The notes beneath the pieces were generated by a model. That model saw nothing but the letters and a program-made list of their open reading frames with translations. It had not been told where the DNA came from and searched no databases. A program made the translations under genes and the position numbers. Source: Fistulifera solaris (Eukaryota). From it: a stretch of DNA of 64,000 bases. Of this stretch, positions 10,244-44,885 are shown one piece after another. Location of the stretch: the NCBI GenBank assembly GCA_030295235.1, contig AP026126.1:2046001-2110000 (forward strand), in the 5' to 3' direction. Position 1 is the first letter of the stretch. Every line of letters begins with the position of its first letter.

Positions 10244-10867
10244 GATGGCGTTTTTGTTCGGTTTCTAAATTTCAAGGAAGGGGGTAATGAAAACGTTTCG
10301 TAGCAGTACGAAGAAGTTATATTATTTGTATTATGTAACGACAGTCAAAAGGTCAAAGGCACTGGTATGAATGATTGCGATGATCTGGCAAGAAATCAAT
10401 TTTCGTGGATCGGTCGGTTTGCGATCTATTTTTTGTGTGTTGGATAATTAAAAGTGACGTAGGCCAAATGAATCCGTGATTGATTTCCAGTCACGCCAAT
10501 GTGAACCTACGACGCGACGACTACCTGGTACTCACTCCTCCGACCTCTACCAGCAGCAGTACTTGGTAGTTTCTCAATAAAAATCTGTAGAAGGAGAATA
10601 AAGTGAATATTGCACGGGGTCGAACACTATTCGTACTTCAGTATTGCTATTTGATTGATAATGCTAACGAAATATGAAAACAGGTGGGAATTTCCGCTGC
10701 AAGATCTCTCTCTCCGACACCGTCCAAGACGAACTTTGCATCTCCTTCGTTGCTTCTGTACTTTTTTCCTCTTTCCCACTGTATCCGCTTTTCGTTTGAC
10801 TCTATCGCGCGAAATATTTTCTCATTTACCGGCCCTTATTATCATTAACAGCAGAGTCTTTTTTGAA

Positions 10868-11326
10868 ATGAAATGCCGCTCGAATCGATCTCTCCTTTTC
10901 CTACGGATCATCCTCATTACGATGAGTTGCATTTTTATGACTACAAAAGCGAACGTGATAGAACCACAACTCAAACCTCGATTGGTGCTACAACCCTTGA
11001 TCGGCGGACCATCTTGGCTAAAATTACATGTTCAAGTACATCTCGTGGAGAACCTTGACAACAGCAACGACAACAGCAGAAACCAAATACGTCACAAATT
11101 TGATTTCGTTCCTCTTCAAGCCACGGAACCCCAAACACTCATTCAACTACTAACACTACAGTCGGTCCCGGGAGAGATACGGACCTTTCAGTCGACGCAT
11201 CCACCTAGTTTGCAGTTTTGTCAACAATATGACAAAGAGGAATTGCATTTGATTTTCAACAATTGCTGGACATTTGCTGCGAAATTGTACTGGTATTTGC
11301 GGCAACAACAAGAGGAGAAGAGATGA
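10868..11326 (+). CDS. Small N-terminally hydrophobic protein with possible permuted papain-like (PPPDE/LRAT-like) motifs
   Basis: ATG at 10868, a hydrophobic segment, then LHVQV, FDFVP and LHLIFNNCWTFA. Confidence 0.45.
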   Translation: MKCRSNRSLLFLRIILITMSCIFMTTKANVIEPQLKPRLVLQPLIGGPSWLKLHVQVHLVENLDNSNDNSRNQIRHKFDFVPLQATEPQTLIQLLTLQSVPGEIRTFQSTHPPSLQFCQQYDKEELHLIFNNCWTFAAKLYWYLRQQQEEKR

Positions 11327-11639
11327 CATCGGAAGCCATTGAAACGCAAAACAATAAACACATCTGTTGAAAAACAACACACTTAAAGCGAATTTTGATC
11401 AGATGTGCAAACAAATTCTGTGATCAAATCCGTTGTTGCAGGAAGTCGCGGCGCCTATTTATAAGATACTTTCCGCCACATCACCCAAAGACAGCCTCAA
11501 AATTACAAAGTCAAAGAAATTTGTTGTGGATTCATTTTGTTATTGCTTAGATTCTGCAAGCATTCGCAATCAACTTTCAAAGGGTGAATCGACTCTTTAG
11601 ACAAAATAATCTTTGTCTATCGACTTCCCCATTCACAAT

Positions 11640-12992
11640 TTACTGGCGGCGGCGGCTTCCCGAGTTGGACGTCGAGGGACTATCAGCCGAGTCGTTGCTT
11701 GCGCTTGCACTTGCTAGGTTGCGGCGGCTGCCCGAGTTGGACGTCGAGGGACTGTCGACAGAGTCGTTGCTTGCGCTTGCACTCGCGAGGTTGCGGCGGC
11801 TGCCCGAGTTGGACGTCGAGGGACTATCAGCCGAGTCGTTGCTTGCGCTTGCACTCGCGAGGTTGCGGTGGCTGCCCGAGTTGGACGTCGAGGGACTATC
11901 AGCCGAGTCGTTGCTTGCGCTTGCACTTGCTAGGTTGCGGCGGCTTCCCGAGTTGGACGTCGAGGGACTGTCGACAGAGTCGTTGCTTGCGCTTGCACTC
12001 GCGAGGTTGCGGCGGCTGCCCGAGTTGGACGTCGAGGGACTGTCGACAGAGTCGTTGCTTGCGCTTGCACTTGCTAGGTTGCGGCGGCTGCCCGAGTTGG
12101 ACGTCGAGGGACTATCAGCCGAGTCGTTGCTTGCGCTTGCACTTGCTAGGTTGCGGCGGCTGCCCGAGTTGGACGTCGAGGGACTATCAGCCGAGTCGTT
12201 GCTTGCACTTGCACTCGCGAGGTTGCGGCGGCTGCCCGAGTTGGACGTCGAGGGACTGTCGACAGAGTCGTTGCTTGCGCTTGCACTCGCGAGGTTGCGG
12301 CGGCTGCCCGAGTTGGACGTCGAGGGACTGTCGACAGAGTCGTTGCTTGCGCTTGCACTCGCGAGGTTGCGGTGGCTGCCCGAGTTGGACGTCGAGGGAC
12401 TATCAGCCGAGTCGTTGCTTGCGCTTGCACTTGCTAGGTTGCGGCGGCTTCCCGAGTTGGACGTCGAGGGACTGTCGACAGAGTCGTTGCTTGCGCTTGC
12501 ACTCGCGAGGTTGCGGCGGCTGCCCGAGTTGGACGTCGAGGGACTGTCGACAGAGTCGTTGCTTGCGCTTGCACTTGCTAGGTTGCGGCGGCTGCCCGAG
12601 TTGGACGTCGAGGGACTATCAGCCGAGTCGTTGCTTGCGCTTGCACTTGCTAGGTTGCGGCGGCTGCCCGAGTTGGACGTCGAGGGACTATCAGCCGAGT
12701 CGTTGCTTGCACTTGCACTCGCGAGGTTGCGGCGGCTGCCCGAGTTGGACGTCGAGGGACTGTCGACAGAGTCGTTGCTTGCGCTTGCACTCGCGAGGTT
12801 GCGGCGGCTGCCCGAGTTGGACGTCGAGGGACTGTCGACAGAGTCGTTACTGGAGCTTGCTAGGACACGCTTGCGCAACATCGTAGGAGCCTCATCTACG
12901 ACATTGCCGAACTCGTTGTTGATGTCGACGGCTTTTGAAGTTGCGCCCGTCAAAGAGATAAGGAATAAGATGGAAGTGGTTGAAAACTTCAT
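11640..12992 (-). CDS. Secreted Ser-rich tandem-repeat polyprotein with RXL spacers (silacidin-like precursor candidate)
   Basis: Signal peptide MKFSTTSILFLISLTGATS and a pro-region ending RKRVL. Then one 18 aa unit plus 16 x (R/H)RNL-ASASASNDS(A/V)DSPSTSNSGS, ending RRRQ. Confidence 0.8.
   Translation of the reverse strand: MKFSTTSILFLISLTGATSKAVDINNEFGNVVDEAPTMLRKRVLASSSNDSVDSPSTSNSGSRRNLASASASNDSVDSPSTSNSGSRRNLASASASNDSADSPSTSNSGSRRNLASASASNDSADSPSTSNSGSRRNLASASASNDSVDSPSTSNSGSRRNLASASASNDSVDSPSTSNSGSRRNLASASASNDSADSPSTSNSGSHRNLASASASNDSVDSPSTSNSGSRRNLASASASNDSVDSPSTSNSGSRRNLASASASNDSADSPSTSNSGSRRNLASASASNDSADSPSTSNSGSRRNLASASASNDSVDSPSTSNSGSRRNLASASASNDSVDSPSTSNSGSRRNLASASASNDSADSPSTSNSGSHRNLASASASNDSADSPSTSNSGSRRNLASASASNDSVDSPSTSNSGSRRNLASASASNDSADSPSTSNSGSRRRQ
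11644..12862. repeat. Coding tandem array of 72 bp units (about 17 copies) with a 504 bp higher-order period
   Basis: The 24 aa unit equals 72 bp. The diagnostic GGTGG (His) variant occurs at 11867 and 12371, exactly 504 bp apart. Confidence 0.95.
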
Positions 12993-14996
12993 GTTGAATC
13001 AGGAATCAGGTTTTGGTTTGAGATGTGCTTGTAAAGATATTTGAAGGAAATTATGAAACAGGATCGAAATGTAATGATGAAAAAGTGAAAGGATCCAATA
13101 ATTCGGTCGTTTTTCCTTCTTACGTCGCTCACCTCTAGACACAGTTTTTGGAATTACTATAAAGAAGAACAGTAGTTTCAACCACGCACGACTCAAAGTA
13201 TGATACATTTTGTGGCCGATGTTTGAATTGCCCACTCCTTCGAAATTCATAACATGGTGACAGCAATCTTGCTTTTTTTCTCACTCCGCTTCTTCACACC
13301 GAGAAGGTCTTGTTGGAACTGATAAAGTAAGATTCGATCTCGAACGAAATATCAGGAATTACGCGAATCATCAATCATCTTTCCAGTGATCGGTTTCTGT
13401 CACGACGTAGATTGTAGAATTCCAGGTAATAAAGTATCATCGTACTCACTGACGGCTGCCTTGATGAAAGGAGAACGGTATGTATGCCGAAACGCTCCTC
13501 GACTCCTCTTGAACTTTAGAAGTCGAGAAGGAGAGTGCGTATGATGTGTGTCTTTAAGCATCGCTACCAAGGGCGGATCCAACGAAACATCAGACAGATG
13601 CAAGGCGCTCTGCTACATTAGACATTCAAGCTAATCTCGACGTAAACGTTGTCTATTCTCTACACCCTTCGTGCTTAAGATAAAGCGGCTTCAGTACATG
13701 CTAGAGTCCGCTACAAAATATCGGGTCGCAACGATGTGCAAACAAGAATGATGCTTAAGACTCAACTGTAATCAATGCAGACAACAACATTTCATTTAGA
13801 ATGCATGGATCTATGGCTCGTTGGTTAACTTCCACGTAAACTTTGGTCGATCTCTCAGCCAAAGTGAGAGAACATGAGAGTGGCAGCACTCTTTCGTCTC
13901 CAGTACCTTGCAAAATGGCATGCTCCTCGCTCGACGCACACTGTGCATGAATTCACTCACAGCATCCGTGTGATTCGATAACAATAGTACCGTGTGTTGG
14001 AACTTAGCGGAAGGGGTTTCCAACGGCGCCGTCGCCTCGAATGGCGGTCGCAACAGTATAGACTCTTTCATCAGTTGAATGCATCCATGATTCCAAATTC
14101 CTGATAAAATTCGGGTCTTTCGAGCCGGGTTCGAGTCGAGGATGTGAGCGAGTAGCTGCGGTATGATTACCGTGAAGCCAAACTTTAGCAAAAGAGCAGT
14201 TTGTATCGATGTTCAGATAAGAGTCTTCTCCTCCCAATATTTTCAGGACCAAACGAATGTCGCCGTCTCGGCAATAGCAACTCCGTTCATATCAAAATAA
14301 GGCATTGTAGAAAACGTTGATCTGACAACCGAGTTCTGAAGCCGATCTTCTATAATTTTGAATAATTTTAATGAATCATGGTTCCGTTATCGCGCCAAAG
14401 GTAAAAGTTTTTGATTGCTAATTGATTTAAATTCATTCAGATCTTTCGGTTCTCGCTAGAATTGGTAAATTGGCAAATTGGGAATTCTCCGAGTTGGAAA
14501 CCGTTCGGCAATGGAAGACGTTCCAGCAAATCATTCGTTTCTCTTGTTCCAGTTCGATTAAGAAGTACTCCGTAAATAATGAATGATACGATCGCCTTGT
14601 TGTGAAGCGGTTGATTTTTGTTACGGAACAATACGTGTAGTCGACAGAGGGGACACCCGGATATAGTTCATGTCGAACGCATCCATTTATTGGGTCTGCA
14701 GCGCTCGGATGTCAACCTAAGGGTCTCCCATATTGCCAATGCATCTAACAAAGCAACGATTGAGTTTGTTTGGGCTTCAAAACAGAAAAAAGGAGAAAAG
14801 ATGCAATGCTTCGAAAGTCTACGCAGTTTTGATGTAACCCTGGTAGGGAAACTTATTGACAGAGGGGGTACCCGGAAACGGGGAATGAAACAACAAGCAA
14901 AGCAGTGCTGCGATATTGGATGAAAGCGCAATGAATGAAGGAATGTCGCACATCGATAGTGTTTCTTCACCACCGAAGTAGATAACCAGAAGGGTT

Positions 14997-16481
14997 ATGA
15001 CGAATCAAAACAGCAACCGCCAAAGCGAGGAGCAACCAAAGGACCGGTCCTCGCAACCACAGTCAACGCAAGAAAACGAAGACGCAAACGCGAAATTCTT
15101 CGTCACACAGAAGTCATTGCCTCTAGTTCGCTACTTATCGTCGAATCACAGCGATGAATGGGATTCTTATACAGACGATGAAGAATCCTTCATTCAAAGT
15201 TTCCCAAAAATCGAACTACATGTTCATCTCGACGGAAGTTTCGATCCTCATTATCTATTTGACTTCTTACAGCAACAACTCCAACAGTCCCCGCAGTACT
15301 CGGACCCCATACAAACACCATCTCCGTATTTGTGCTGGCCTACAGAACAGCCTGTTCCGTGGGATCCCGACAACAGCCCCTTACCGCTCCGTTCGAAAGT
15401 ACAAGATTGTCAAACACCCAAACAGTATCATCAACTCTGCACGTGTCGTGGCTATCGTTCACTCGCGCAAATGCTCCATTGCTTTCAATACTTTCTACCA
15501 CTAGTTCAAGGAAACTTGGAATTGCTGGAAAAACTTGCTTTCGATTTTGTGCAGCGGCAGTGGGAACAACATGTCATGTATACCGAAGTGCGTTATTCGC
15601 CGCATTTACTCGCTACGCAGCAATCAACAGGAGATGAGGAAAACAAGGCTACTTCTTCTATAATTTCAGCGGAACAAGTGTATCAGGCTGTTACACATGG
15701 ATTGCGTCGAGGAACGCAACACTTTGGAATCAAGGTAAACCAGATTTTGTGTGCCATCACGTGGCATCCCGAATGGGCCGAAGGGACTCTGGAATTGGCC
15801 CAAGAGCATTTTCACGAATTTCCTTGTGGGGTAGTAGGCATCGACATTGCCGCGGGCGAAGAGCATTTTGACGTGGAACGACACCCAGAGTTGTATCAAC
15901 CCCATTACGATATGATCCAAAAAGCCAAACAACTTCACATACCGATTGCGTTACACGCGGGAGAATCGACATCGCGAGCACGGGACAATGTACGAACAGC
16001 AATAGAAACATACGGTGCCAAACGCATTGGTCATGGCTACCGAATGGTGGATCAGCCCGAACTTATGAAGTTTGTCAAAGAACGAGGCTGTCACGTAGAA
16101 GTGTGTCTTACTTCGAGTGATGAAACGGGTGGATGGGATTATGATGAAAATACACACAAGGATTGGAAGCAGCATCCTTGTGTTACTATGAAACAGCACG
16201 GTGTGCCGTTTTCGTTGAGTTCCGATGACCCTGCAGTCTTCCATACGTCTCTGGCATGGCAATATCGTACCGCTGTCACCAAAATTGGATTTGATCGCGA
16301 AATATTCGAGCAAACGAACTTAGATGCGATAGCGGCCGCCTTTCTACCGGAAGATGAAAAGGAGGAATTGCGAGAACAAGTCCGTCGATACTGCAGCAAC
16401 GCGCATAGACGTTCGTTTCGAAGAGCTAGCTCGGAGACTTTTACCGATCGAGTGTATCTAAGCAACAAGCAATACCTGTAA
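14997..16481 (+). CDS. ADA: Adenosine deaminase family protein
   Basis: Motifs PKIELHVHLDGS, YTEVRYSP, VVGIDIAAGE, HAGE, RIGHG and SSDDP. Confidence 0.92.
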   Translation: MTNQNSNRQSEEQPKDRSSQPQSTQENEDANAKFFVTQKSLPLVRYLSSNHSDEWDSYTDDEESFIQSFPKIELHVHLDGSFDPHYLFDFLQQQLQQSPQYSDPIQTPSPYLCWPTEQPVPWDPDNSPLPLRSKVQDCQTPKQYHQLCTCRGYRSLAQMLHCFQYFLPLVQGNLELLEKLAFDFVQRQWEQHVMYTEVRYSPHLLATQQSTGDEENKATSSIISAEQVYQAVTHGLRRGTQHFGIKVNQILCAITWHPEWAEGTLELAQEHFHEFPCGVVGIDIAAGEEHFDVERHPELYQPHYDMIQKAKQLHIPIALHAGESTSRARDNVRTAIETYGAKRIGHGYRMVDQPELMKFVKERGCHVEVCLTSSDETGGWDYDENTHKDWKQHPCVTMKQHGVPFSLSSDDPAVFHTSLAWQYRTAVTKIGFDREIFEQTNLDAIAAAFLPEDEKEELREQVRRYCSNAHRRSFRRASSETFTDRVYLSNKQYL

Positions 16482-18338
16482 CTCGTAAATCGAGTAATTG
16501 AGTATTATGGATTGTTTTTTTCCAATGCGAAACGTTTCATCTGTTGCCTTATCTTCTCGTGCCTGACAATACAGGATCACGTCCTTATTCGTTTTTAATC
16601 GAGTTAGTGATCAGGTTAAGTTGTTCTAGCCGAGTAGCGGTACTGGATCCTTTGTACTGTATAATGAGCAGGAAAAATATACCAGAAGCAGTGCCGGTTG
16701 GTATAGGATTTCCCTACGTATTTTCTACGCACTTTTTTGTACAGCAACGGAGAGGAATTTTAACCTAAACCCTAACGATTCTTATCCTTTTGCAATTAAC
16801 AAGGATGAATTTAGTTGTAGGTTGTATTCTAGTAGCCGACCGCATAGTAACTCGCAGTTAGATTAGGCAAAGGTCTAAGTCGATATATAAAGGTCACTGT
16901 TCCTCCGATTCACCTTTCTGCGCATCAATTATACCGCCATCATACAAAAGCTTACGTGATGACCAAAGTCGATGACAAAAGTTTACTGCGCACGGATAGC
17001 TCAGCAAACTCGGCAACAACAGAAGTTACGATACAAAGGGTCTATCTACAAAGAGATAGAATGCTGTTGAACAAGTAAGCAACAAGGAGAGTCGATGCTA
17101 ACCAAATTACTACAGAAACCAGGCGTCGTCAGGCGCCTTAAGCAAAGACTTAAGCTAAGATAAAAATAATTTTTTAAAAAAGATCATCTAGAGAGCTATT
17201 GATAAATATTAAACACTTTACCACCTCAATCTTAAATAAGATGTTGTCGAAAATACCGTTCAGCTCTATCTGGAGAAAAGAAAAATTTCGCATCAAAAAA
17301 CTTCCGTTGCCCGACTGCCATTTTTGTATGAATCTTGAAAATACTTTGAATACTTGCAGACACACAAAATTGTGGTTCTGAAGTTTCATGAACCAGCGTA
17401 GATTTGTTTCAATTTCTTTAGGTCGTTCTGATGATTTATTAAAGAACGCCTCCTGTCACGTTTAAACTGTTGAACACTGCTCAAACGCGTTGTGCTAACG
17501 ACGTTTTTGCCTTTGCTGTGTACTTTATGTGCAATGGTAGCTCCAGAGTAAGAGTTTCTCTGTGAAGTCATTCACTATCGTGTTCAGCGAAAGGTTCGGA
17601 GATCGGAATTTTACGACGAACTATGAACACCACTTCATTGCAGATCGAATTGATGCATCACGGCACGATAGTGCGAAGCAGCGGGCTCTTTGTGACGAAG
17701 GACGACTTTACATTAACATAGTTTTTCGCGTAGCAACGACTTGTCGGCTTTCTCATGGTTTCTTTCCTTTTAATGGCTCATTTTTTTACTGGCTTTTCGA
17801 CAAAAATGCGGCAGACGTATTACTAGTGATTGAAGGACTCCCACGATTTTTTCACAGTTCACGTCATGGTGGTACTTTTCGAAACGGCACCGGTATTTCT
17901 TCACCCGCTATACCCCGACGGTATATTTTTCCAAAAATACTCAAGGTACTATGCCAAAAGTAGTATATTAAGCGCAGAAACTACTTCGAGTATTTTTGGA
18001 AAAACATACCAAATTGGTATAGCGAGACGTAGAAAAGACGTAGAAGTGGTATAAATGTACGGGAGGCTGGTATGGTACAGTACAAGTACCAGGTACCGAT
18101 ACTCTAAAAGTCTCCTTCTCCCAAAAATCAGAGACCGAGATCCACTAAAATTCCATTCCAACGCTTCGTCAAAAAAGGAAAAGCAAGACCCAACGGCGCA
18201 CATTCGTCCTCTCACTTTTTCGTTCCTTAACTCCCAACAAAAAAGAATAAAACAAAAGTTCTGTTATCTAAGAGGGCGGCTTTTTAATTTGCTTTTTATT
18301 GACTTGGTTGGTGGTTATCAATTACCTGAATCAACCCA

Positions 18339-42176: not shown

Positions 42177-44488
42177 TTATGCAAATTTGTACAGGTTCAC
42201 AACACCAATCTCACTGTCTGTTTTCCCCAACGTCCCAATACCGCCTAATGCAACAGTTAATCCATCCGTCGTTATTGCGACGGAAGTACCTAATCGAAGT
42301 CCATCGTATTCACCAACTATATTTGTGCCTTGCTGACAGAAGATTCCGGCATCTCGATAAACCTGTACAACACCGGCCGGGCTGGCACTGGTAAACGATC
42401 CCAGCGAATAGGGAGATCCGACCACTAAATGGCTTCCGTCCCCGCTAAGACTAACAATTTCTCCAAAGTCTTCATGATCTATGCCTACAATTGTGTCAAA
42501 TCTCAGCCAGTCGGCACCGTCAAAGTCATCAACAGTTACATATCCAGTATTTCCTGCAGCAGAAAGGGTTCCGATGGCTATTCTATCTCCAGCATTGTTG
42601 ATAGAAACCGAATTTCCGAAAGCATCGCCCTTGCTTGAAGGTGGAGGGAAAATGGAACTGCCTACCTGCACCCATTTATCTGTTTCATACTCAAAGACCA
42701 TAGCGTATTCTCCGCCCTTTGCTCCGACAACGATAATGCTTCCGTCTTCGTTAATGTCGACAGCTGAACAAATGATTTCGCCGAATTAGTATTGTTACAG
42801 GGAGAGGAAATGACATCACACGAACACGCTTACCTTCACCAAACAAGTCGCCGTCATTCCCTGTTAGTTTTTGTCCAACTTGCTCTAAAGCAGATTTAGC
42901 AGCGTTGGCGCGGAATACGTAAACAGAGTTGTTGTCGACGCCACTGGTGATTATCGTCGAGCCATCTGATGAAATAGCTACTTGCTGTCCGACGGCCTCC
43001 GTCAGAGCCTTGGTACTAATACTCGAGACAACAGTGGCGTCCTTCAAAAGAAAAGCTCGACATACTCATCGGCAGCAACGGCCAGAGCACTTCCATCACC
43101 CGAAATCGCTACAGCTGAGCCAAATCCGATGCTTGCAGCGCGATCTCCAGAGATCATTTCGTTGAAAGCAACAGTTCCGTTCGTAATGGTATAAGTATCA
43201 GCCAGGCCAGTGAGACTTCCATTTCCATCGCCTACGTCATAATTAGGACCACCAATAAGAAGCATAGATCCGTCGGTCGTCATGGAGACTCCTGCTCCGT
43301 AGTTGCCTCCAGCTTGGTCACCCACTATTGTTGATATTGATGTCCAGGTACCCTGTCCTAAACCAATGCAAGTTTTACTTCTTGTTGCTACTGGAAGAGA
43401 AGTCGGTGCTGGTGTCGACGACGACTCGTTTTCAGCAACATTTCCGTCTCCAATGCTGGACGGTTGCAGGGATGGTAGTTCCGATGTTGATGGAGCGCTG
43501 CTGATAGACGGAGCGCTGCTGATCGACGGAGCGCTGCTAATAGATGGTGCACTGGATGCATCAACAGCGGATGGGCCATCGGTAGTTTCTTCGGCGGCGG
43601 AGGGTGCGCCAGTGGTATCATCATCGACAGCCGATGGTGCACTAGTAGTCGCATCATCAACAGCGGATGGTGAATTCGTTGTCTCGTCATCGGCAGCTGA
43701 TGGAGCGACTGTCGTTTCCTCGTCGACGGCAGCTGACGGGGCATTGCTTGCATCTGCATCCACCGTATTTGAACTTGGAGCGTCGGATGCTACCACTATA
43801 TTTGAGCTTGGGGCTTGTGATGCTGTCGTCGTGCTTGAACTCGGAGCTTGCGATGCTTCAGCCGTGTTCGAGCTTGGAGCTTGGGATGTCGACGCGACTG
43901 GGGGTGACGTCTCAGATCCTGCTACTGGAGCTGTGGTAACGTCACCTGCGGTGGGTTGTGGAGAGGAAACCGGTTGAGGTGATATGGTAGGTGTTGTCGT
44001 TTCCTGGGAATTACTTGGAGCAATTGTAGCGCTCGGTGAAACCGTCTTTTGTCCTTTCTCACTCTTGCCCATTCCCATGGATCCCTTTCCCTTCCCTTTC
44101 CCTTTTCCTTTGCTCTTTTCGTTCTTGTCATGCCCCTTGCCTTTTCCTTTTCCTTTACCCTTTCCCTTGCTATGGCCGTCGTCACTGAAAAAGCCATGAC
44201 TATGATGGTGGCCCATCCCCATACCCATTTTGCCGGTGCCTTTGCCACTGCTAGCCCCTTGCCACTATGGCTAACTTTTCCTGGTTCTCGATAGGGGTCT
44301 TTATGGTGAAGGAGACTTAGCTTTTCCTCCCCGTGAGTAATGATTTCTTCCTGCACTGACTCGTGCTTCACATGCTGAAATCGCAGATTACGTTCTTCAT
44401 CTGCAAACAGTCCTCTGTCGTGTTGTTGTTGTCGTGCTGAGCTTAAGCCCAGAACGGAAAGGACGGCAATACTCACTCTCATCTTCAT
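42177..44488 (-). CDS. Secreted protein: RXL pro-sites, His/Lys/Gly-rich block, mucin-like APS repeats, C-terminal FG-GAP-like beta-propeller; intron ~42765-42833; frameshifts ~44230 and ~43047
   Basis: Signal MKMRVSIAVLSVLGLSSA, then RGL and RNL, KGKGKGKGKG blocks and (S/N)APS repeats. The propeller-like repeats are FGSAVAISGDG, FGNSVSINNAG, FGEIVSLSGDG and LGTSVAITTDG. Confidence 0.7.
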
Positions 44489-44885
44489 GGTTGAGGTGTA
44501 CGCGTTTTTTTGAACTCGAATGAAAGAAAAATGTGAAGAGCTCGTTTCTTTTTGACAGTCAACGGATGCAACAAATTCAAATTTTCGCGCAAATCGCCGT
44601 TGCATTCTGTTATGTACAAACGTTGTTTTTTTCTGTGCTGTCTGTGGTATAGTCAGTCATCGAAGTGGTACCCACCAGTGTCACATAGACATCTATACGG
44701 TAATGGAGTTCTGCAAGCCCAATTTTGATTCACAAGACTCCATCCAAATTCTAACGTACGAATTCACATTTTCCAAGTCGTTGACTTGTGATTACGATGT
44801 AGACCAACATCAACGTGTCCACGTCCTTGAAATCCAACACCCTGTTTCCAATTGGACAGGGTGACTACTGCGAAACTATTTCGAT

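Follow-up and report, generated by a model that had tools for sequence, protein, structure and literature searches.

The silaffin-1 precursor of the diatom Cylindrotheca fusiformis, Sil1p, is described as a signal peptide (residues 1-19), an acidic pro-domain with an RXL motif (20-107) and units R1-R7, which are 19-33 residues long and end in RRIL or RRNL, tetrapeptides that are missing from the mature silaffins (PMC4557024, PMC3820600). Silacidins appear in the same two accounts as peptides of about 25 residues, composed mainly of Ser, Asp and Glu and with about 60% of their Ser phosphorylated, that come from a repetitive RXL precursor (PMC4557024, PMC3820600). By 2017, reports of RXL sites were confined to biosilica-associated proteins, where an N-terminal RXL is taken as the mark of pro-peptide cleavage (PMC5647440). 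Here we describe an open reading frame (ORF) on the minus strand of a 64,000-nucleotide stretch of Fistulifera solaris contig AP026126.1 (the whole of which we call the window), with a signal-peptide-like start, a short pro-region and 17 Ser-rich repeat units. We propose that it encodes a secretory polyprotein feeding biosilica formation, a role that is plausible and to which we would assign a probability of about 45%. That this is a real gene for a secreted polyprotein we consider probable from its architecture.

Architecture of the polyprotein and its nearest known counterparts

The original prediction, drawn from the letters of this DNA alone, had placed a minus-strand ORF at 11640..12992, and the ORF listing and translation agree with it exactly, giving 450 amino acids (Table 1). 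The stop-to-stop frame is 11640..12998, and a six-frame reading leaves only two codons open upstream of the ATG. A signal peptide and a pro-region ending RKRVL had been predicted as well. The N-terminus is indeed signal-peptide-like by eye, with small residues at about positions 18-21 and a best 12-residue hydropathy of 1.85, and RKRVL occupies residues 40-44. The RXL site that it contains, K-R-V-L (41-44), sits directly before unit 1, at the end of a segment that is not repeat-derived: the 24 codons ahead of unit 1 are identical to a unit at 23 of 72 nucleotides, and at 7 of the last 15. At the other end of the frame, the TAA stop comes directly after the RRRQ of unit 17. Lys occurs at residues 2, 20 and 41 of the entire polyprotein and nowhere else. 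An AlphaFold model has a helix at residues 5-34.

We defined the repeat units by splitting the protein after each R-x-L, which yields the 17 near-identical units that had been foreseen, with RRNL as the spacer in 14 of them, HRNL in two (units 7 and 14) and RRRQ in the last. The full 20-mer reads ASASASNDS(V/A)DSPSTSNSGS, position 10 being Val in eight of the sixteen copies and Ala in the other eight. Residue counts for a full unit minus its spacer agree with the predicted 9 Ser, 1 Thr, 2 Asp, no Lys and one N-D-S sequon, and add 2 Asn and the absence of Arg, His and Glu. Pooled over all peptides, Ser makes up 45.3%, Ala 16.9%, Asn and Asp 10.1% each, Pro, Thr and Gly about 5% each, and Val 2.7%; the sequons number 17, one per peptide. 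Ser, Thr or Asp stands at +2 for 8 of the 9 Ser in the 20-mers and for 7 of the 9 in the 18-mer of unit 1, forming an S-x-S/acidic ladder. Such spacing suits casein-kinase-type enzymes of the secretory pathway.

Variation among the units is slight and leaves the spacer core intact. Apart from the terminal RRRQ, the 16 full units differ in their amino acids only by V/A and R/H. R-x-L is retained in all 16 between-unit spacers, and Ala follows R-x-L directly at 17 of 17 junctions, the pro-region site included. The HRNL units drop the dibasic pair yet keep R-x-L-Ala, which speaks for selection on R-x-L rather than on RR.

On the DNA, Tandem Repeats Finder reports a 72-nt array (24 codons) at 11649-12860, with 16.8 copies, 93% matches, no indels and a score of 2032; the runner-up tandem array in the window scores just 114. 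The array raises the G+C of 12001-14000 to 0.518; every other 2-kb bin of the window lies between 0.41 and 0.49. A higher-order period of 7 units (504 bp) overlies the array, units 1-7 (12363-12860) resembling units 8-14 (11859-12362); identity is 0.981 at lag 7 and 0.907-0.954 at the remaining lags from 1 to 11. The 7-unit period points to recent unequal exchange and a changing copy number.

Of the systems described, the closest appears to be Sil1p rather than silacidin, judging by the RXL design and the RRNL tetrapeptide. The features that the polyprotein has in common with Sil1p, as that precursor is portrayed in the sources above, are a putative endoplasmic reticulum (ER) signal peptide, an RXL site in the pro-region, tandem short Ser-rich units ending RRNL (14 of 17 here) and a raphid pennate host. 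The differences are of scale and composition: 17 Lys-free units of 24 aa and a pro-region some 23 residues long, compared with the 7 units of 19-33 aa, the Lys-Lys pairs bearing polyamines and the 88-residue acidic pro-domain given for Sil1p. We rejected silaffin identity on the zero Lys of the units. Silaffins are reported to lack sequence conservation (PMC3820600). The library searches gave no Sil1p-like match for the polyprotein, a direct Sil1p alignment not being part of the comparison.

The original prediction had called the system silacidin-like, and this stands in part. Short Ser-rich peptides in many copies, a repetitive precursor and RXL at the unit ends are all features described for silacidin of Thalassiosira pseudonana, and the peptides would likewise be polyanionic if their Ser were phosphorylated. 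The likeness does not extend to an acidic backbone of mainly Ser, Asp and Glu, since Asp and Asn each make up 10.1% of the pooled peptides and Glu is absent, with a charge of about -2 per peptide, nor does it extend to detectable similarity: no silacidin-like relative is found among the 63 matches of the phmmer search given below, direct alignment to a silacidin sequence not being part of the comparison. Silacidins themselves are isolated from biosilica and, together with long-chain polyamines, precipitate silica. Two details that the prediction had given agree in part with the sources. Its SEDSxDSP silacidin core agrees as far as SEDS.SE, the motif given in one source (PMC12533330), and its RRL spacing of the silacidin precursor agrees as far as the RXL motifs described at repeat C-termini (PMC4557024). 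Silacidin homologues are reported in Thalassiosirales only, and none is given for the pennates P. tricornutum and F. cylindrus (PMC5649158).

Two further comparisons help to place the design. Fungal Kex2-processed repeat proteins (KEPs) and the alpha-factor precursor are described as having a signal peptide, tandem near-identical peptides of 9-24 aa, dibasic flanks and release in the secretory pathway (PMC6339444). The polyprotein shows the KEP-type layout of a putative signal peptide and at least 3 repeats with dibasic flanks, RR being present in 15 of its 17 units; this layout is a fungal design class and not a homology family. KEPs are fungal and, in the same account, are cut by kexin at KR, KK or RR into pheromones, wall peptides or toxins that are not Ser-rich and of low complexity (PMC6339444), whereas the conserved element of the polyprotein is R-x-L-Ala. 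Protein 1401909 of Entomoneis vertebralis resembles the polyprotein in its Ser-rich repeats, its pennate-diatom origin and its authors' proposal of a silacidin-like protein without sequence similarity; it differs in its Glu-rich SEV.S.SE motif, its K...K and PT repeats and its uncertain gene model, and the account given of it describes no RRNL-spaced design (PMC12533330).

These comparisons suggest that the polyprotein belongs to neither the silaffin nor the silacidin family, but may work like silacidin. The best label, in our reading of its features, is a variant of the RXL-processed diatom peptide-precursor design that looks Sil1p-like in processing and only loosely silacidin-like in product.

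A model for processing, and the alternatives

From this architecture we infer that the minus strand is expressed and that the signal peptide would direct the polyprotein into the ER co-translationally. Diatom RXL-type processing, as proposed for Sil1p, would then cut after each R-x-L, and the RRNL, HRNL and RRRQ ends would be trimmed off. This would free 17 peptides with a net charge of about -2 and monoisotopic masses of 1684.67 Da for the one 18-mer, 1826.74 Da for eight of the 20-mers and 1798.71 Da for the other eight. By analogy with silaffins and silacidins, Ser of the S-x-S/T/D ladder would be phosphorylated in the ER or Golgi, and glycosylation or hydroxylation may also occur at the N-D-S sequon and the S-P site. 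As polyanions, the modified peptides could then serve long-chain polyamines or polycationic silaffins as counter-ions, either in the silica deposition vesicle or in the wall. With low Asp and no Glu, the polyanion idea rests wholly on the proposed phosphorylation. The more specific idea that the polyprotein is an independently evolved pennate counterpart of silacidin, combining a Sil1p-type RRNL route with Lys-free Ser/Asn peptides whose charge would come almost entirely from phosphoserine, we regard as doubtful.

Several points weigh against this model, some touching the product and others, taken up further on, the gene itself. RXL processing is called a hypothesis that 'remains to be proven' (PMC5647440). 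Pentalysine clusters are reported to target silaffins to silica (PMC9650480), and the peptides are without Lys and hence without such clusters. They also differ from silacidins in having only 2 Asp, and no Glu, in each unit. Finally, of the five models returned by AlphaFold2 without an alignment, one stacks short strands, with a mean pLDDT of 64.5 and no residue at or above 90, the other four reaching 32.7-36.4; an uncleaved folded repeat would be possible from that one model, which we consider unreliable and read as no reliable fold.

The alternative that survives best is a real secreted protein with no role in silica, either peptides released as signals or an intact O- or N-glycosylated Ser-rich glycoprotein of mucilage, adhesion or wall. 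A signal peptide, a pro-region and tandem dibasic-flanked peptides also define the fungal KEPs (PMC6339444, PMC7329392), and the RR pairs and missing pentalysine clusters of the polyprotein would agree with a product of that kind, but R-x-L-Ala at every junction, those of both HRNL units included, fits a diatom RXL site better than kexin, and the confinement of RXL sites to biosilica-associated proteins in the 2017 account (PMC5647440) argues in the same direction. The 17 sequons and 45% Ser are as in mucin-like proteins, and the single AlphaFold model that stacks the units as strands could be taken to favor an intact product. As a receptor ligand, on the other hand, a very Ser-rich and featureless 20-mer would be unusual. 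Overall we think a role outside silica unlikely, and prefer the biosilica polyprotein.

With regard to the gene, the length of the ORF alone proves nothing, as three of the six frames are open across the array, whose unit length is a multiple of 3. Variation among units 2-17 is confined to 12 of 72 columns. The ORF frame has 8 synonymous and 5 non-synonymous changes (3 of the 5 from the terminal RRRQ) and one opposite-strand frame has 9 and 4, the two scoring alike because their wobble positions coincide; counted in all six frames, these changes fail to pick a strand. Codon usage, set against that of 8 Pfam-supported ORFs of the window, is neutral between the ORF and the opposite-strand frame. 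In units 2-16, third codon positions account for 7 of the 9 variable columns. That opposite-strand frame, the rival plus-strand frame 11551..13044, would encode a Leu/Ala-rich 24-residue repeat.

Conservation cannot back the gene, as no relative was found in any protein or metagenome search. The polyprotein matched 0 Pfam families; word-seeded protein searches, at near and at shorter lengths, found nothing at E <= 0.001 among 8000 scored candidates each; the ESM Atlas held nothing usable; and a metagenome scan gave 347 pattern matches, 0 of which were confirmed. A phmmer search of 1.84 billion representatives returned 63 matches at E <= 0.001, 10 of them at <= 1e-10 and 0 at <= 1e-30. All 63 were scanned for motifs and 15 were inspected individually, and none is an acidic Ser-rich, RXL-spaced protein. 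At least four [RK]RxL motifs occur in two of the 63, P0005 and P0025. P0005 (1094 aa) has 16 K/E/T-rich units of 24 residues ending RRNL and no signal peptide, and we took it as unrelated; its period and spacer equal those of the polyprotein by apparent coincidence. P0025 has Tyr/Gly-rich units with RRSL and was likewise taken as unrelated, and the other matches were taken as compositional only. Homologues are described as commonly lacking for silica-associated proteins, whose sequences are disordered, of low complexity and particular to a species (bioRxiv 10.1101/2021.09.18.460806). A search of literature outside subscription journals turned up neither this gene nor any Ser-rich polyprotein with RRNL spacers from Fistulifera or another diatom. 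The ORF is also missing from the public collection of 15 billion proteins, meaning that it is unannotated.

Six sequencing runs share part of 10800-13800, none of them on record as RNA, and among these matching runs there is no strand-resolved or long-read RNA record of a minus-strand transcript. We compared the contigs of four runs from one organism, X1-X4, over 12790-16600, a region of mostly unique sequence, with most of the array and its 3' side lying outside it. Contigs of X1, a DNA-like run, cover the entire region. Those of X2-X4, whose kind was guessed to be RNA, cover an identical few patches, 12790-12840 and part of 13293-13788, to which X2 alone adds a contig at 15908-16116. The repeat words that X2-X4 carry at 12790-12840 lend weak support to a transcript, their strand and locus of origin being indistinguishable. 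The same contigs are without cover of 12841-13292, which holds the signal-peptide and pro-region codons, and of most of the adenosine deaminase gene, although such holes prove nothing. In the patch upstream of the ATG, X2 and X4 span most of the sequence and X3 only 13338-13488, with no differing letters. Within the patch there is no ATG ORF longer than 53 aa, and Rfam finds nothing; an upstream exon and a separate non-coding transcript are both possible readings.

The X1 unitig over the signal-peptide region (12819-13147) has a word depth of 10.8, compared with 17.8 in the next unitig, and some X1 unitigs over the adenosine deaminase gene (15368-16275) have 3-5 differing letters. The drop in depth and the differing letters may reflect a second, diverged copy, either an allele or a homeologue.

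That no minus-strand protein exists, the frame being fortuitous in an intergenic minisatellite, part of a plus-strand exon (11551..13044) or the source of a non-coding transcript only, could draw on the three open frames, the near-equal counts, the neutral codon usage, the missing homologues and an ORF absent from a collection that includes its neighbor, but is improbable, as the plus frame has no ATG before the array, the annotated plus-strand gene stops at 11326, and an ATG with a signal-peptide-like start, an independent basic-R-x-L at unit 1, a stop after the last unit and the RRNL of Sil1p are jointly unlikely by chance. Tandem and low-complexity DNA, moreover, is commonly masked by annotation pipelines. 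The minus strand is favored on these signs of a complete gene and on the stand-alone nature of the plus-strand neighbor, and with it the secreted polyprotein.

Neighboring genes and other features of the window

The convergent neighbor of the polyprotein ORF, a small secreted-looking protein lying tail to tail with it, has an exact entry in the public collection (NCBI, UniRef) as a stand-alone protein. It has a signal-peptide-like start and no Pfam domain, and its cluster mates are 129 and 79 aa long. Further large ORFs of the window are ordinary eukaryotic genes by their Pfam matches: APC2, a multi-KH protein, an adenosine deaminase, Myb and TauD. Over 99% of its length, the adenosine deaminase ORF (14982-16481) shares 91% identity with a protein of Fistulifera solaris. 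Additional named matches belong to Mayamaea, Seminavis, Chaetoceros and Cylindrotheca, all diatoms, or to MMETSP records that include Coscinodiscus and Attheya. These matches assign the window to a raphid pennate diatom close to Fistulifera, and a diatom host agrees with the proposed biosilica polyprotein.

Table 1. Features of the polyprotein locus, in window coordinates
Feature	Position	Strand	Remarks
Polyprotein precursor ORF	11640..12992	-	Single exon, 450 codons + stop, TAA at 11640-11642; from ORF listing and translation
Signal-peptide-like N-terminus, residues 1-21	12930..12992	-	Met-Lys, uncharged hydrophobic core, small residues near likely cleavage site
Pro-region, residues 22-44	12861..12929	-	4 acidic and 3 basic residues; ends K-R-V-L
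Unit 1, residues 45-66	12795..12860	-	22 aa: 18-residue peptide (ASSS...) + RRNL
Units 2-17, residues 67-450	11643..12794	-	Sixteen 24-aa units: 20-residue peptide + spacer
Upstream patch, covered by X2-X4 contigs	13293..13788	.	0.3-0.8 kb upstream of ATG; may or may not belong to the gene
Convergent neighbor, 152 aa	10868..11326	+	Ends 314 bp short of polyprotein stop; bounds any plus-strand gene model

About 31 kb from the polyprotein, two adjoining minus-strand ORFs at 43044-44605 resemble pieces of one gene and have no Pfam match. In the first, E-E-R-N-L, an RXL site, comes after a signal-peptide-like start; the second combines Gly-Lys runs with a long region of Ser/Thr/Pro/Ala mucin-like repeats and a C-terminal Gly/Asp-rich domain. 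From these features the pair is a second candidate for a wall or biosilica-type protein. A plus-strand ORF at 49608-50825 matches a MopE-type putative metal-binding motif and, over a short length, the alkaline phosphatase PhoX in Pfam. Rfam gave no match in the entire window.

A candidate pennate counterpart of the silacidins

Acidic phosphopeptide partners of long-chain polyamines have, in the account that treats them, a gene-level record in Thalassiosirales only, in the form of the silacidins, and none in the pennate genomes examined there (PMC5649158). The polyprotein would be a concrete candidate for this missing pennate component, and it occurs in a transformable, oil-producing lineage. 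Its 17 near-identical peptides would also be ready substrates for finding the RXL protease and the kinase involved. More generally, standard annotation overlooks such genes, the ORF being missing from the public collection in which its neighbor is present.

If the polyprotein is indeed a pennate counterpart of silacidin, the cell could tune the strength of the polyanion, and through it both the phase separation of polyamines and the patterning of silica, at the level of phosphorylation instead of sequence. Rapid copy-number evolution of the peptide dose would then show in the 7-unit higher-order repeat.

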